A DNA stretch of 24,249 nucleotides. Source: a virus. Taxonomy: Duplodnaviria; Caudoviricetes. The stretch spans positions 1 to 24,249 of the IMG/VR virus record IMGVR_UViG_3300037962_000349. The stretch is one strand, 5' to 3'. Below the pieces are notes generated by a model that was not told where the DNA came from, did no database searches, and saw nothing but the letters and a program-made list of their open reading frames with translations. Positions 16,861 through 23,738 of the stretch are shown here, piece by piece (within the stretch, counting starts at the first letter, position 1; each line of letters begins with the position of its first letter). The position numbers and the translations under genes are program-made.

Positions 16861-17433
16861 ATGACAGCACAAGAAAGTAATTTAGTAAACGCTTTTGAAA
16901 CTACCCTCGCTGCACAACTTGCAAGCGGTGGTACTTCGATGAATCTTACAGCAGACCCAGGTGTAGACTCACCTGCATATTTTGTAATAGACCCTGATAA
17001 TGATAGTTCTAGAGAAGTAGTTCTTTGGGCATCTGGTACTGACCATAGTAACGCTACAATAACAAGAGACATTGATAGCAAACATGGTACTGACCCAACT
17101 CATGCATCAGGTACTACTGTTAGATTAGCTGTAGTTAAACAACATTTTGAAGATGTACACGACAGAGTAGATACAATAATTAACTCAGCTGGTACTGCAG
17201 TTAATACATCTGGAATTGTAAAAGATGAAGATAATATGGCATCTAACTCTGCGTCACATCTAGCAACACAACAGTCAATAAAAGCATATGTTGATTCTAC
17301 TGGTTTAACATTGTTGGATGAAGATAACTTTGCTAGCGATTCAGCTACGCAACCACCTTCACAACAGTCTGTTAAAGCCTATATAGCAAATCAAGGGTTT
17401 GCTGATATTGGATTAATAATAGCACTAGGATAA
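16861..17433 (+). CDS. Short tail-fibre stem / proximal fibre protein (190 aa)
   Basis: GGAG RBS, N-terminal beta domain, two DEDN..S.SA....QQS.KAY fibre-type repeats, hydrophobic C-terminus IGLIIALG. Confidence 0.6.
   Translation: MTAQESNLVNAFETTLAAQLASGGTSMNLTADPGVDSPAYFVIDPDNDSSREVVLWASGTDHSNATITRDIDSKHGTDPTHASGTTVRLAVVKQHFEDVHDRVDTIINSAGTAVNTSGIVKDEDNMASNSASHLATQQSIKAYVDSTGLTLLDEDNFASDSATQPPSQQSVKAYIANQGFADIGLIIALG
17224..17388 (+). repeat. Two-copy intragenic repeat with 93-nt (31-aa) period
   Basis: DEDNMASNSASHLATQQSIKAYVD from 17224 versus DEDNFASDSATQPPSQQSVKAYIA from 17317. Confidence 0.85.
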
Positions 17434-17443
17434 GAGGAATAAT

Positions 17444-17776
17444 ATGGCAAATGTATTTAAGAACGCATATCACGATGGAACTACATCTCTTGCAGATTTA
17501 ATTCCTGCATTAGATGCTAACCATGAGGCAATAGTCTTAATGCTCAGAGCAACTAATGTAGACGGAACTAATGATGCAACAGTTGATGTAAGGGTCGTAG
17601 ATGGTTCTTCAGGAGATGCATATATTGCTAAGACTATGTCAGTGCCTGCTGATACTTCTTTAGATTTACTAGGTACATCTAAATTAGTTCTTATGGCAAC
17701 TGATAAAATACAAGTATTAGCATCAGCAGCATCAGATATAGAATTTTTTGCAAGTTATCTTGAAATAACAGATTAG
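17444..17776 (+). CDS. Small beta-sandwich protein, probable fibre adaptor/connector (110 aa, MANVFKN...YLEITD)
   Basis: GAGG RBS. From recollection, MANxFKN...NVDGT...VPADTSL...KLVL...D.I...LEI proteins commonly follow fibre genes ending in IALG in aquatic phages. Confidence 0.55.
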   Translation: MANVFKNAYHDGTTSLADLIPALDANHEAIVLMLRATNVDGTNDATVDVRVVDGSSGDAYIAKTMSVPADTSLDLLGTSKLVLMATDKIQVLASAASDIEFFASYLEITD

Positions 17777-17785
17777 GAGTAACCA

Positions 17786-18412
17786 ATGTCATTTGGATAT
17801 TTGGGAGATACTTCTACCAAGATAAAACAACAAATAAAAAATCAAGGTGTAATATCTGTTTCCGAGGCTTATGAATTAGAAAAAAAGGGACATCTTGGTG
17901 GTAGTTTAGAGCTTATTGAAGAACAAACTTATTCAAGTGCAGTTTCAGCAGTAGATTTTACTTCTATAAAAGGTGCTAAATATAATGTTCACTTTTTAAC
18001 TTGGGCAAATGTTGATTTTGCTTCAGAAGAACTACCTGCATTGAGATTTTTTGAAAGTGGAGTATTAGAAACTGCAAGTGTTTATCAATATGCTTTGCAA
18101 TCTTATGGTACAGCAGGTGGTTTCGCTGAAAACAAGAGTACAGGGGAAACTTATTGTTTGTTAGGTAACTTTACAAATGATGTTACTAATGGATATGCCT
18201 ACATTTATAATGCAAATGACAGTTCAAAATATACTTTTGTTACAAGTCAATCAATGGACGATGACCAAGATGCTAGTCCACAAAGTATTGGTTTATTTGG
18301 TGGAAGTGTTTTACCACAAACAAGTACAGTAGATGGAATTAGATTTACAGGAAGTGCTAGTACTAATTTTTCTTCATTTACTGTAAAACTCTATGGAGTA
18401 AAACAGATATGA
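17786..18412 (+). CDS. Putative receptor-binding domain paralog A1 (208 aa, with ~38-aa N-terminal extension)
   Basis: AGGAG RBS. Shared family motifs LELI, YNVHF, YQYA, YIYN, DGIRF, KLYGV. Confidence 0.7.
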   Translation: MSFGYLGDTSTKIKQQIKNQGVISVSEAYELEKKGHLGGSLELIEEQTYSSAVSAVDFTSIKGAKYNVHFLTWANVDFASEELPALRFFESGVLETASVYQYALQSYGTAGGFAENKSTGETYCLLGNFTNDVTNGYAYIYNANDSSKYTFVTSQSMDDDQDASPQSIGLFGGSVLPQTSTVDGIRFTGSASTNFSSFTVKLYGVKQI

Positions 18413-18924
18413 GTAACCTTAGATTATTAAATGAAACTACTATAACTTCAAATGTATCTTCTGTGAATGTAACAGATGTTTTTTCAGCAGATTTTGATAT
18501 TTACAAAATAGTTTTTAATGGAATTACAACAACAGACGCTACACCTTTACATTGTAAACTTATAAATTCAAGTGGAAGTGTTATAAGTTCTTCAGAATAT
18601 GATTATGCTTTTTTACTTATGAAAGGTGAAGCATCTTTTACAGAAAGCAACCAAACTAATGGTACAAATTGGAATAATTTTTTTGGTAATCCAGATGAAG
18701 CGCCAGAGCTAGTAAGTGGGGTTGCATATATATTCAATCCTTTTTCAAGTTCATCTTACACTTTCGCTATCAATCAAGTGGCAGTTGAAACAAGAAGATG
18801 GTATAAAGGTGTTCAAGTTTTTACAGAAACAACTTCAGTAACAGGATTTCAAGCATTTGAACTTAATTCACGACCAATTACTAGTGGTGTGTTTAGAACT
18901 TATGGATTGCGAGTTGATACATAA
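18409..18924 (+). CDS. Putative receptor-binding domain paralog B1 (171 aa)
   Basis: ATGA overlap. Motifs FDIYKI, YDYA, YIFNP, RTYGL. Confidence 0.7.
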   Translation: MSNLRLLNETTITSNVSSVNVTDVFSADFDIYKIVFNGITTTDATPLHCKLINSSGSVISSSEYDYAFLLMKGEASFTESNQTNGTNWNNFFGNPDEAPELVSGVAYIFNPFSSSSYTFAINQVAVETRRWYKGVQVFTETTSVTGFQAFELNSRPITSGVFRTYGLRVDT

Positions 18925-19427
18925 TGGGATTAGTACAAGTAGCAACAAATACAGTAACAAGTGCAGTAGCTAGTGTAACTTTGACAGGCATAGATAGTGA
19001 TGATGTCTATATGGTTGCTATGAGTGGTATGAAACCTGCATCTGATGCTCAATTATATGCAAGGGTAACAACAAGTGGAGTAGCTGATAGTGATAGTGAG
19101 TATGATTATGCAAACAAATATTTAAAAGCAGATACAAGTTTTGGTACTGACAGTTCAACAAATAATAATAGGTGGACACCAACTTCAACAATGGAAAATG
19201 CTTATAATGGTTACAGTATGATTATGTATCTTTATAATTTTAACAATTCTTCTGAATATAGTTTTATGACATCAGAAGAAGCACATATACAGGCTGGAAC
19301 AACAACAGTAAGAGGTTTACAAGGTGGTGGTGTTCATACAGTTGCTGAAGCAAATGATGGTATTAGTTTTCTTATGGGTAGTGGAAATATTGAAGCAGGA
19401 ACATTTACATTGTATAAGGTAGTGTAG
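18924..19427 (+). CDS. Putative receptor-binding domain paralog C1 (167 aa)
   Basis: TAATG overlap. Motifs DVYMV, YDYA, YLYN, DGISF, GTFTLYKV. Confidence 0.7.
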   Translation: MGLVQVATNTVTSAVASVTLTGIDSDDVYMVAMSGMKPASDAQLYARVTTSGVADSDSEYDYANKYLKADTSFGTDSSTNNNRWTPTSTMENAYNGYSMIMYLYNFNNSSEYSFMTSEEAHIQAGTTTVRGLQGGGVHTVAEANDGISFLMGSGNIEAGTFTLYKVV

Positions 19428-19431
19428 AGAT

Positions 19432-20070
19432 ATGAGTTATATACCAAAAGATGCAGTAACACAAGCCTTCAGAAGTAACAAAGGTGTGCTTACACCTAAT
19501 CAAATTATTGAATTAGATAATGAAAATAAATTTACTAAGTATGGACAACTAGAACTTTTGTTGACAAATGAATCTATAAGTAGTGCATCAACAGTGGATT
19601 TTTTAGCACTTGATGATTATGGAAATTTTGATGTTTTTTTTGTAACCTTTAATGACTTAAGTATTGCTAATGATAATAAAAGAATAGGCTTAGAACTTTT
19701 AAAAAATGGTGTTGCAAGTGGTACTGCTTATCATTCAGCAGGTAGAGTATTAACATCTGCTGCTAGTTATACCAATGGAAGTGGCACTTCTCTTCCTGGA
19801 TTAAGGATAACTGACAATATAGGGAGTGCTACAAATGAAAATACAAGTGGATATATATATATTTATAATGCTTTAAATAGTGCAAGGTGTACAACTATTA
19901 CTTATCACGCTACATTTATGACAAATGGTGGTGTGCCTGGTGTCGAATATGGTATTGGTGTTCACCCTACAGCAAGGTTTGATAATGGTTTAAGATTTCA
20001 CCCTGACATAAATGGTAGTTCTACTTTTACAGGTGGTGCTTTTACTTTATATGGAATAAGGAGTTTTTAA
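19432..20070 (+). CDS. Putative receptor-binding domain paralog A2 (212 aa, with ~38-aa N-terminal extension)
   Basis: Motifs LELL, FDVFF, YHSA, YIYN, NGLRF, FTLYGI. Its N-terminal extension resembles that of A1. Confidence 0.7.
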   Translation: MSYIPKDAVTQAFRSNKGVLTPNQIIELDNENKFTKYGQLELLLTNESISSASTVDFLALDDYGNFDVFFVTFNDLSIANDNKRIGLELLKNGVASGTAYHSAGRVLTSAASYTNGSGTSLPGLRITDNIGSATNENTSGYIYIYNALNSARCTTITYHATFMTNGGVPGVEYGIGVHPTARFDNGLRFHPDINGSSTFTGGAFTLYGIRSF

Positions 20071-20594
20071 TGGCTACAAATTTAGAGTTTATTACAAGTT
20101 TTGATATTACTGCTAGTCAAGAAGTTACAGATATAGATAATGTTTTTACAAGTAAATATAATATTTACCAAATTACTTTTGCAGATTTTTCCACAGTTGG
20201 CTCTTCTGATGAAACTATTAGTTTAAGAATAATTGATGATAGTGGAACACTTGATTCAGATAATGTTTATGATTATGCAGTTAATGAGCTAAGGTCTGAT
20301 ACAAGTTATGCTGATAATAAAAATGAAAATTTTGAAAGAATAGATAGGTTGATGAAAATAGATGAAAGTCCTGATGGTATGAGTTGTAATTTATATGTGT
20401 ATAATCCACAAATTAGTAGTGCATTTACATTTTTTACATGGCAAGGTGCAGGTAGATTTTCAGGTCAAAGTAGAGGTTTTAAAGGAATAGCAGCTCATAA
20501 GGTAGCAGAGGCAGTTAGAGGTATAAGAATATTTGGTACTGTTGGTAGTAGACCTTATGACACAGGAAAAATAGCAGTATATGGAGTTACATAA
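20070..20594 (+). CDS. Putative receptor-binding domain paralog B2 (174 aa)
   Basis: AGGAG RBS and TAATG overlap. Motifs YNIYQI, YDYA, YVYNP, RGIRI, AVYGV. Confidence 0.7.
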   Translation: MATNLEFITSFDITASQEVTDIDNVFTSKYNIYQITFADFSTVGSSDETISLRIIDDSGTLDSDNVYDYAVNELRSDTSYADNKNENFERIDRLMKIDESPDGMSCNLYVYNPQISSAFTFFTWQGAGRFSGQSRGFKGIAAHKVAEAVRGIRIFGTVGSRPYDTGKIAVYGVT

Positions 20595-21151
20595 TGTCAA
20601 GTAGTTTAGTTTTATTAGATGAATTTACTATATCTAGTGCATTAGCAAATGTCACTATAGGTGGTGGTAGTAGTGGTAGTAGTGGTTTAAATTATTCTAT
20701 TGATGGTACTTACAATGTTTATAAATTAACAGTAAATAATTTACAAGTTTCAGCAGATGATGTTCCAATAATGAGAGTTACTAAATCAGGCACTGCACAA
20801 AGTGATGCTGCTTATGATTCAGCAGGTACTTATTTAAAATCAGATGCTAGTTTTACTTCTTTTGGTTCACCAGACAATAACAAAATAGATTACATGACAA
20901 CTATTGAAAGTTCTGTAAGTGGTGGTAATGGAAATGGAATTTATTATTTATTTAATTTTCCTAATACAGGAGAGTTTAGTTTTGTAACAATAGAAGAAGC
21001 ACACTATCAACAAAATGATAATGCAGTAAGAGGTATCCAGGCAGGATTTGCACATACTGTTGCAAGTGCAAGTGATGGTGTATTTCTAGCATTAGACGCA
21101 GGAAATAATATGACAGCAGGAACATTTAAACTTTATGGACTCAACAAGTAA
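20594..21151 (+). CDS. Putative receptor-binding domain paralog C2 (185 aa)
   Basis: GGAG RBS and TAATG overlap. Motifs YNVYKL, YDSA, YLFN, DGVFL, GTFKLYGL. Confidence 0.7.
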   Translation: MSSSLVLLDEFTISSALANVTIGGGSSGSSGLNYSIDGTYNVYKLTVNNLQVSADDVPIMRVTKSGTAQSDAAYDSAGTYLKSDASFTSFGSPDNNKIDYMTTIESSVSGGNGNGIYYLFNFPNTGEFSFVTIEEAHYQQNDNAVRGIQAGFAHTVASASDGVFLALDAGNNMTAGTFKLYGLNK

Positions 21152-21177
21152 AATAGTATGGTAACATAGGAGATATT

Positions 21178-21480
21178 ATGGCAACAAAAGAAGAGCTACA
21201 AGCACAAGCAGACGCAGAGATAGAGGCAGCAAAGCCTCTTAATAAATCAGTTAATGGTGTTGTATCAGAATTTTCTGATGCAGAATATGCACAAGCAAAA
21301 ATTGATTTAGGAAATCAAAAATGGAATGACCAAGAGTTTGGTTACATTGCTGCAAGACAAGCTGCTTACGCAAGTATACCTGACCAACTGGACCAACAAT
21401 ATTGGGATTCAGTAAATGGTACAACTACTTGGAAAGATGCTATAGCAAAAGTTAAATCTGATAATCCAAAGCCTGAGTAA
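21178..21480 (+). CDS. Probable tail-fibre assembly chaperone-like protein (100 aa)
   Basis: AGGAG RBS. The C-terminal Y...R..AY.SI.DQLD..Y.D...W...I..VK...PKP motif is, from recollection, typical of small proteins following fibre genes in marine phages. Confidence 0.55.
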   Translation: MATKEELQAQADAEIEAAKPLNKSVNGVVSEFSDAEYAQAKIDLGNQKWNDQEFGYIAARQAAYASIPDQLDQQYWDSVNGTTTWKDAIAKVKSDNPKPE

Positions 21481-21818: not shown

Positions 21819-23738
21819 GTGTTGCGGTCAAGGCTGTTGCAATGGTGGTTAATAACATGTTTAGTTATGCTGCCAATATCAGCATTAGCTAACGAAGAAG
21901 AACAAGAGAATACTACTACTACTACGATACCAGGAGAAGTAGAAGAAATAGAAACATTTGATGGTCCAGAAGAAACAACTACGACCACAATACCTGAAGA
22001 GACAGAAACTACTACAACTACTACTACAACTATTCCTGAATGGGAACAATCTACAGATATAGAATTGCCTGAAGATGAGTTAGATAGTCAAGGTAATGAA
22101 GTAGAAAATAACATACAGATAGATGACAAGCATAGTAATGGTAACTGGTCTTGTTGTGGTATGACTGACTTTCACATGAACTTACACTACTTTCAACATG
22201 GAAACGATAGTAATGATTACACATTTACATTACCTGAAACTACAACAGTAGATGAAGAAGAACTAGAGATAGATATATACGAAGTAGGTTTTAGGATTGG
22301 TGCATTAAATAATGATGGAACAGTTACATACATACATACTGATGAAACCTCACAAGTAAATGTTCTTGAAGGTCAAGACAATACAGATATACAAAATATG
22401 TTTGAAGATGTTGTTTACAATATTTATGACACTCTTGAAACCTTTATAGAAAGTTTTACAATAACAATAAATGATTGGTCGTTGCTTGATGATATATCAT
22501 TTAAATATATACAGCCAACAACTACTACTACAACTACTACCACATTACCTCCTCCACCAGAGCCTGAGCCTGAAGTTGCACCACCCGAACCTGAAACATT
22601 TGTTGTTGTTCTTGATGATGGTACTGAGGCTGAGTATGAACAGCATGAAATAGATGATGGTACTGTAGAGAGAGATAACGAACGTAAAAAGAATTACGAA
22701 ATATATGGTGTAGAATTAACTGACGAACAAATTGCAAGAGGAGATTTAGAACAATATGATATCGAAATCATTGATGATGAAAATATGGTTGAAGACGGAG
22801 AAGAGCTTTCTGATGATGTTGATATACCTGATGTTAATGAAGATAGATATGAAGATGAACCCGAATATCAAGAAGATGAAAAAGAAGATATTGATGACAA
22901 GGTTCGTGAATTTAATGACACAGTCCTCGAAGTTGAGGAATACTTAGATACTTTTGAAGAAATAGAAATTGTTATAATAGAAAATATTGAAGACATAATT
23001 ATAGAGGATATTATTGATGAGTTACACGAAGAGGATATACGAAGAGATGACAATGAAGAACCTAAAGTTCAACCATTGGAGGATATTACCGAGGAGATTG
23101 AGGAGATATTTGTTGAAGAGGTGGTTGAAGAAGAGGTTGAAGAATTAGAAGAAATCATAGAAATAGAGATAGAAGAAGATTTAACTGATGAAGAAATTGA
23201 AGAAACCATTGAAGTATATGTGCAAAAACTCGACACAGAAGAAGTTGTAGAAGTATTAGAAGAAGTTAATGATATAGGTGTACAAAACCTAGAACAAGCT
23301 ACAGAAGAAGTGCAAGAGATAGTTCAGGCTGTTGTAGAAGAGGCTATAGAAGAGATAGAAGAACTTACAGAAGAACAGGTTGAAGTAGTTGCAGAGGTGC
23401 TACAAGTACAAACAGAAGACGTAGAAATTATTGCAGAAGCTGTAAAAGAAGATGAAGTTGTTGCAGAAGCTGTAGAAGAATATGTAGAAAGAGCTGTACA
23501 AAATGCTGATGTAGAAAACTATACACTTGCTGATGTTGTTACAGAGGTACAATACGAAAACTTTTTAGAAAATCCTATAGAAACATTTGTAGATTTAGAT
23601 TTTGAAGGTATAACAATAGATAATATAGGTGATGACATGACGTCTGACCAGAAAGAAAAAGCACAAGAGGTGGTAGTCCCAGTTATTTTGACTAGAATAG
23701 CTACTATGGCCGCATTTGTGTTTAGGAAAACAATATGA
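21819..23738 (+). CDS. Exported, extremely acidic, Thr-tract-containing protein with probable C-terminal membrane anchor (639 aa)
   Basis: RBS AGGAGGT (21807-13) and GTG start. Sec-like signal peptide MLRSRLLQWWLITCLVMLPISALA|NEE; poly-Thr and Pro linkers; E/D-rich body; hydrophobic end VVVPVILTRIATMAAFVF followed by RK. Confidence 0.75.
   Translation: MLRSRLLQWWLITCLVMLPISALANEEEQENTTTTTIPGEVEEIETFDGPEETTTTTIPEETETTTTTTTTIPEWEQSTDIELPEDELDSQGNEVENNIQIDDKHSNGNWSCCGMTDFHMNLHYFQHGNDSNDYTFTLPETTTVDEEELEIDIYEVGFRIGALNNDGTVTYIHTDETSQVNVLEGQDNTDIQNMFEDVVYNIYDTLETFIESFTITINDWSLLDDISFKYIQPTTTTTTTTTLPPPPEPEPEVAPPEPETFVVVLDDGTEAEYEQHEIDDGTVERDNERKKNYEIYGVELTDEQIARGDLEQYDIEIIDDENMVEDGEELSDDVDIPDVNEDRYEDEPEYQEDEKEDIDDKVREFNDTVLEVEEYLDTFEEIEIVIIENIEDIIIEDIIDELHEEDIRRDDNEEPKVQPLEDITEEIEEIFVEEVVEEEVEELEEIIEIEIEEDLTDEEIEETIEVYVQKLDTEEVVEVLEEVNDIGVQNLEQATEEVQEIVQAVVEEAIEEIEELTEEQVEVVAEVLQVQTEDVEIIAEAVKEDEVVAEAVEEYVERAVQNADVENYTLADVVTEVQYENFLENPIETFVDLDFEGITIDNIGDDMTSDQKEKAQEVVVPVILTRIATMAAFVFRKTI

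Follow-up and report, generated by a model that had tools for sequence, protein, structure and literature searches.

Why should a phage carry, at the place where its tail fibre ends, six homologous genes in a fixed order? The question is raised by a 24,249-nucleotide (nt) stretch of viral DNA (IMG/VR record IMGVR_UViG_3300037962_000349, positions 1 to 24,249; hereafter the window), in which an original prediction had recognized six paralogous tip domains arranged as two A-B-C triplets (A1, B1, C1 and A2, B2, C2; genes g1 to g6). Our analysis of the window and its relatives points to two copies of an ordered three-gene cassette, each A-B-C set probably forming a 1:1:1 pseudo-symmetric head hung by a peptide of A. 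Strong support for two A-B-C units at a fibre tip, as predicted, comes from the order and number of the genes, their tree, their co-variation inside triplets and the presence of the same domain at the end of ordinary fibres; the 1:1:1 heterotrimer is a physical complex that we predict from the genes, with reasonable but not high confidence.

The six genes indeed share one domain: all pairs (15/15) were homologous (local score z 8-36 versus 200 shuffles), and the flanking genes, encoding proteins of 190, 110 and 100 amino acids (aa), showed no homology to the six in the same shuffle comparison (z < 3). The closest relatives lie three genes apart, as reciprocal best phmmer matches paired g1 with g4 (42 bits, 31% identity; a narrow margin, the next match reaching 39 bits), g2 with g5 (57 bits, 28% identity) and g3 with g6 (100 bits, 44% identity). 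A tree was built from 152 unique full-length members (181 full-length matches before duplicate removal) from 41 loci and the window. Every gene was placed in the clade that its position predicts, the B clade having 52 members (support 0.98), the C clade 50 (0.85) and the A genes numbering 49; one divergent A gene fell between the A, B and C groups. Residues fixed by class include opposite charges (E42 in A against R in B, K148 in A against E in C; also K171 in B and E155 in C), and class-diagnostic residues are common to both triplets. The termini and an NSSxY(T/S)F loop are conserved, and loops 122-132 and 160-168 are variable in all three.

The gene junctions are also as described, namely ATGA, TAATG, a 4-nt gap (19428-19431), TAATG and TAATG. 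The original prediction took the only non-overlapping junction to fall between the triplets, which is true of the window but does not hold as a rule: in relatives, genes overlapped at the C-A junction in 10/39 cases versus 141/165 within triplets (Fisher p 9e-13, a value inflated by the relatedness of the loci). Since relatives can overlap at C-A, we dropped the middle gap as proof of a triplet boundary.

Gene order was surveyed in 78 loci with matches from three scans, of which 62 remained after 16 duplicates were dropped; the class profiles were built on the first 41 loci, only the later ones being out of sample. Among the 62 non-redundant loci, 204 of the 205 neighbouring pairs followed AB (83), BC (82) or CA (39), the remaining one being an AA pair in a broken locus. 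As anticipated, copy numbers came in multiples of three with the A-B-C order conserved: 23 of the 28 arrays closed at both sides were ABCABC and three were ABC, the other two being an ABC accompanied by an A peptide fused to another (glycine-rich) domain and a broken array. The three single-ABC arrays belong to near-identical phages, in which the fibre gene before A is a different one and A has no long peptide. Three virus records that are at least 90% complete carried 6, 6 and 3 copies. A second scan, selected by the 110-aa 'hub' gene that precedes A1, gave 54 loci: 20 ABCABC (one with a further, separate fibre-head gene), one with six genes and an ambiguous third, four cut by contig ends inside the array and three at or just past the hub, four (two distinct) with ABC plus a peptide-glycine-rich fusion, four (two distinct) with such a fusion in slot 1 and no heads, four in which the hub is followed by another protein, and 14 with a distant hub and no head gene in the fetched flank.

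The same domain occurs as an ordered trio in the cultured pelagiphages HTVC019P (AGE60622-24), HTVC010P (AGE60300-02) and HTVC034P (gp37-35), with E values of 1e-16 to 1e-22 against the pan-class profile, and at the end of single long fibres in HTVC026P (gp55, E 1e-28) and HTVC034P (gp39, E 4e-16). In 80 pelagiphage-type loci found with the middle gene, 32 runs touching a contig end were set aside; the closed short-gene runs came in threes in 46/46 cases (44 of three, one of six and one of 3 + fibre + 3). The 17 closed singletons were long fibre genes, three apparently short ones being fibre genes with non-ATG starts. These trios resemble the window's cassette in domain family, in being ordered triplets and in having a chaperone-like gene next (Phage_tail_APC, PF16778). 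They differ from it in that each of the three genes, annotated only as hypothetical, has its own N-terminus of ~22 aa, and in their independent origin. Indeed, they form a clade of their own (support 0.99), 48-53% alike between classes and 17-21% alike to A, B or C, so triplication arose at least twice. That both origins settled on the number three is the best indirect argument for three different chains filling one trimer. Additional triplets with other N-terminal peptide sets (loci L106, L128, L160, L167 and L168) make two triplets per phage in the pelagiphage lineage also.

How would such a head be held on the tail? The original prediction was silent on an N-terminal extension of ~38 aa that is found on A genes only and exists in two types, one per slot (67% identity within a type, 30% between types). 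The A1 peptide is 87-92% identical in three close relatives, their A1 heads being 37-45% identical. In loci L056/057, a Gly_rich_2 domain (PF21722, E 1e-5) is joined to the slot-2 peptide, the fusion and a 121-aa partner standing in place of the whole triplet 2; the slot-2 peptide is fused to a similar glycine-rich protein in L193/199, and in L190/191 and L201/202 a relative of the A1 peptide occupies slot 1 as a fusion with glycine-rich proteins. Because the same peptide, on a glycine-rich domain, replaces a whole triplet, the A peptide is likely the docking tag of the head on the tail. Such glycine-rich domains are presumably monomeric adhesins. A recent preprint on phage Jabs names polyglycine domains as candidate host binders (bioRxiv 10.64898/2026.07.24.740622).

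We therefore favour, on the strength of the genes, a model in which A, B and C of one triplet would assemble into one mixed knob that would bind host surface sugars and hang on the tail through one N-terminal peptide, that of A. With a homotrimer, three docking peptides would reach the socket, and with a mixed trimer one, so that a normally three-fold head would fit the one-peptide socket that takes a glycine-rich adhesin in relatives. Two sockets, for A1-type and A2-type peptides, would be filled with two independently exchanged heads, and the phage would thereby have two tips for host recognition, each swappable on its own. For the A1 socket, the most likely protein is the 110-aa hub, which may be the adaptor that joins the heads to the fibre: the A1 peptide co-varied with it (r 0.84, n = 21; r 0.64, n = 14), the two being adjacent. 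The A2 socket is uncertain. Single-triplet phages lacking the hub (L029:4481-6833) have an A with a short, different N-terminus after a 133-aa fibre-like gene, so a second way of head attachment exists.

The inheritance of the genes bears on which chains belong together. Pairwise identities correlated within triplets (Spearman-Mantel r 0.38-0.77, p 0.002, n = 22 complete arrays) and not between triplets (r -0.24 to 0.17), and the same was observed in the hub-selected set (n = 14; within, r 0.47-0.78, p at most 0.004; between, r -0.12 to 0.03). C1 and A2, though adjacent, were uncorrelated in both sets; therefore, proximity alone fails to explain the co-variation within triplets. The correlation shows co-divergence or co-transfer of triplets, which does not in itself prove contact. 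In four close relatives, hubs were 94-98% identical to the window's and heads 23-58%, and three of the four retained both A peptides at 86-100%; the heads are thus the hypervariable part.

The original prediction also proposed that subunits mix freely across both triplets, giving up to eight head types per phage (2x2x2). This is the alternative that survives best, but we consider it unlikely. Single subunits have been swapped between genomes against partners only 32-50% alike, which leaves room for mixing; for some genes the nearest relative sits at the other triplet position (9/44 A heads, 3/44 B, 4/44 C), and, as noted, class-diagnostic residues are common to both triplets. By contrast, most genes keep to their position, and same-class paralogues (A/B/C) are no more alike within a genome (32/30/36%) than between genomes (32/29/36%), an equality for which we also dropped gene conversion between a genome's two triplets. 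Genes co-vary inside but not between triplets, in both sets, which argues for two cognate heads over free mixing.

A less probable arrangement is that each protein forms its own homotrimeric head, with A3, B3 and C3 stacked or chained in a fixed order and A3 docked on the tail. Homologous domains do end single-gene fibres, which are presumably homotrimers, chains with two or three tandem domains exist, and an ordered chain would likewise conserve order and co-vary. Yet neither B nor C has a linker or additional peptide for chaining, the A peptide also occurs on a glycine-rich domain, and two or four links should be tolerable in a chain, whereas closed arrays come in threes in two independent lineages. 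That A alone is a virion head, with B and C as paralogue-derived assembly factors or monomeric accessory lectins, is very unlikely: the docking peptide is confined to A and glycine-rich replacements are accompanied by one small partner gene, but between close phages B and C vary as much as A does (25-58% identical to the window's, with hubs at 94-98%), have A's variable loops, as expected of exposed receptor-binding faces, and are already followed by a separate chaperone-like gene.

Several observations weigh against the cognate 1:1:1 head hung by A. The Mantel signals may stem from whole-triplet transfer or from a few divergent genomes rather than from interface co-evolution. Single subunits have been exchanged between genomes (for instance, B1 90% identical while A1 is 38% and C1 49%), and of 11 genome pairs with any subunit more than 62% identical, several have only one subunit in common, at 76-90%; cognate pairing is therefore not strict. 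The correlation of the hub with the A2 peptide failed to replicate (0.62, then 0.11), for which reason the hub was dropped as the A2-peptide binding site, and in the second set the hub also tracked B1 and C1. Among 111 longer homologues, chains with two domains (30) exceed those with three (10; 71 have one domain and none has more than three), an excess for which homotrimeric beads along a fibre would account no less well than a single-chain pseudo-trimer. Finally, sugar binding by the heads, which we regard as likely from the predicted structure, rests on generic fold matches with Z at or below 8.1.

In the AlphaFold2 model of A1, an 11-strand beta-sandwich begins at residue 41 (predicted local distance difference test, pLDDT, 84). 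Its best solved match was the GH32 C-terminal sandwich (Z 8.1, root-mean-square deviation (rmsd) 3.5, 127 aligned), and the matches listed also included galectins and carbohydrate-binding modules (Z ~6) and the HFTV1 tail fibre (Z 6.3). The original prediction had likened the head to that of C1q (gC1q A/B/C). The likeness is conceptual, three paralogous jelly-roll-like domains per head with a weak fold match (5hzf, Z 5.9, rmsd 3.2, 102 aligned), and stands as an analogy only: C1q, collagen NC1, BclA, BAFF and APRIL (Z 5.4-5.9; Z 5.6-5.9 for C1q/TNF) are level with many unrelated sandwiches and are outscored by GH32 C-terminal and galectin-type ones (Z 6-8.1), there is no sequence or Pfam match, and the cassette genes encode no collagen stalk. 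Among the best 50 fold matches listed, the head of lactococcal phage 1358 did not appear, from which no exclusion follows. Foldseek against the PDB returned only generic lectin-like and spike-protein matches (template-modelling (TM) score at most 0.35); predicted viral structures (BFVD) matched much better, with TM up to 0.76 by query length, and included fibre proteins carrying collagen or Stf repeats.

None of the six proteins matched Pfam or PHROG, the six-gene profile had no match in a PDB sequence search at E up to 1, and tblastn of g3 against annotated phages found none; an ESM Atlas search with g3 gave unnamed viral clusters. The profile of this unnamed family matched 31,983 clusters at E up to 0.001. 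The domain was C-terminal in 66 of the 71 longer single-domain homologues, placing it as a C-terminal head domain of phage tail fibres. When the natural three-domain chain P0273 was folded, the domains were confident (pLDDT 79) and their packing was undecided (predicted TM score 0.51); a fold search with this chain found matches to one domain or to a portion of two (galectin tandem 5glt, 214 aligned, rmsd 6.3), and none of the best 50 listed was a three-domain match to C1q. Other homologues (P0257, P0274-P0282 and related) have two head domains and then a different C-terminal region of ~240 aa, which may be an unrelated third domain that makes up a set of three.

Heterotrimers made from three consecutive viral genes, on which the original prediction was also silent, have already been published, and the cassette, known here from its genes, may work alike; as in these systems, three consecutive paralogous tail-module genes are kept as a set. 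One precedent is mycobacteriophage Jabs, whose ORF60, ORF61 and ORF62, described as three consecutive genes for a similar beta-sandwich, form a 1:1:1 heterotrimer by cryo-electron microscopy (cryo-EM), proposed as a carbohydrate-receptor-binding module (bioRxiv 10.64898/2026.07.24.740622, preprint). By that description, with which alone we compared the cassette, the Jabs trimer differs in being anchored to Dit via all three chains in a siphophage baseplate; one triplet is described, and the head is likened to that of lactococcal phage 1358. In mycobacteriophage Mysterious, three consecutive beta-sandwich proteins, gp35, gp36 and gp37, form a heterotrimer resolved by cryo-EM at the tail tip (PMC13252515, preprint). 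Again by description only, it is unlike the cassette in that six trimers make a structural bowl clamped by baseplate proteins, the account mentioning no single docking peptide or swappable twin cassette. The tripartite tail proteins of virophage DSLV2 are reported to co-purify as a heterotrimer that binds bacterial lipopolysaccharide (PMC12724248); their three consecutive paralogous genes are kept across a lineage, as here, but have a T4 gp37-like needle fold rather than a beta-sandwich, and belong to a virophage. Our literature search, with most subscription papers outside its scope, found no paper on this domain family or on pelagiphage virion structure, nor on one-peptide docking interchangeable with glycine-rich domains, independently varying twin cassettes or repeated triplication.

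The only match of the GTDB scan was a phage contig in a Candidatus (Ca.) Actinomarina single-cell assembly (L083), with the order hub-ABCABC-100-aa gene behind tape-measure-like genes; 6/6 matches of this host assembly sit on the phage contig, and the A1 peptide there belongs to the same type as that of the window. We therefore take Ca. Actinomarina as the likely host of the window's phage; the ligand is likely the variable envelope glycan of this host. The contig has been described as a phage that contains a variable island, and its host as carrying a single major island for envelope diversification (PMC7771536). The same report attributes proteins for sialic-acid removal to the variable part of the AG-919-G14 phage contig (Lopez-Perez 2020, PMC7771536), in a statement that is not tied to the cassette; no catalytic domain was seen in the six. 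The window ORFs include no recognized tail-tube or tape-measure gene, hence the short tail that we predict for this phage, and the cassette seems common to long- and short-tailed phages.

More tentatively, a very large unnamed family of fibre-head lectins may have repeatedly broken three-fold symmetry by gene triplication, so that a fibre tip became a heterotrimer that plugs in through one docking peptide and offers three different binding faces; phages of streamlined marine bacteria (Ca. Actinomarina and SAR11) would carry one or two such plugs, swap entire triplets as well as single subunits between genomes, and perhaps mix subunits within one infection for a combinatorial receptor repertoire. 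If the model that we favour is correct, the cassette would be the likely host-recognition module of phages on two dominant ocean bacterial groups, including cultured HTVC010P, where the genes are annotated hypothetical. The model would also assign a function to the ~32,000 clusters of a family that has no entry in Pfam, PHROG or the PDB, and offer a testable reason for heterotrimeric heads: a head with a single docking peptide would allow a trimeric lectin and other adhesins to replace one another. The triplets of cultured pelagiphages make experiments feasible now.

Table 1. Genes and peptides of the tail-tip locus in the window
Feature	Position	Strand	Remarks
190-aa tail-fibre-like protein, hydrophobic 'IGLIIALG' end	16861..17433	+	PHROG tail/tail-fibre families, E 4e-9 to 2e-6
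110-aa 'hub'	17444..17776	+	directly upstream of A1 in most relatives; pelagiphage homologues annotated 'virion structural protein'
A1 (g1), docking peptide + beta-sandwich head domain	17786..18412	+	208 aa; AlphaFold2 model; clade A
A1 N-terminal peptide, ~38 aa, two short predicted helices	17786..17899	+	likely docking tag, slot 1; on A genes only
B1 (g2), head domain only	18409..18924	+	171 aa; clade B; ATGA overlap with A1
C1 (g3), head domain only	18924..19427	+	167 aa; clade C; TAATG overlap with B1
A2 (g4), docking peptide + head domain	19432..20070	+	212 aa; clade A
A2 N-terminal peptide	19432..19545	+	likely docking tag, slot 2; distinct from A1 type
B2 (g5), head domain only	20070..20594	+	174 aa; clade B
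C2 (g6), head domain only	20594..21151	+	185 aa; clade C
100-aa cassette-closing protein	21178..21480	+	phrog_9114, E 3e-12, function unknown

The genes bordering the cassette are listed in Table 1. The 190-aa protein is likely the proximal fibre, and a C-terminal motif similar to its hydrophobic end precedes the hub gene in relatives. No solved relative of the hub was found, and an ESM Atlas search with it gave nothing usable. The 100-aa protein is likely a fibre-tip chaperone or cap, its C-terminal half matching small genes that follow single fibre genes in pelagiphages; its gene co-varies with triplet 2 only, for which adjacency may account. Locus L019 has two copies of this gene downstream of C2, after an unusually divergent second triplet, and a 4Fe-4S ferredoxin gene (PF13459, E 3e-15) directly follows a relative's tail-tip cassette (L056:9325-9573).

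The window as a whole is the structural arm of a marine, low-GC (~33%) phage, with large internal-virion-like ORFs, a major capsid gene (PF17236, E 6e-42) and tail genes besides the genes of the table. We also ensured that the array is not an assembly artefact: runs from several marine studies contain its stretch, a 1,714-base contig identical to 19482-21195 is present in two runs of different studies, and IMG/VR locus L001 encodes the same six proteins. RNA runs contained only 0.06-0.15 of the window's words. In run X9, summed contig depth was high over the hub, peptides and gene ends and low inside the heads, a hint only, as contigs cannot rank genes. When 17444-21480 was compared between loci, the window's hub was 100% identical to that of contig L172 but 94% to that of L179 (L179/L042), whose six heads are identical; the 100-aa gene likewise differs between the window and L179. 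These mismatches reflect either recombination at both cassette borders or mixed assembly. Further downstream (21819-23738), the window encodes a 639-aa, extremely acidic protein (Glu/Asp, with a Thr run) that starts much like a signal peptide, has a hydrophobic C-terminus and may serve in exclusion or at the host surface; the length of its Thr run differs in the near-identical locus L042 (648 aa).

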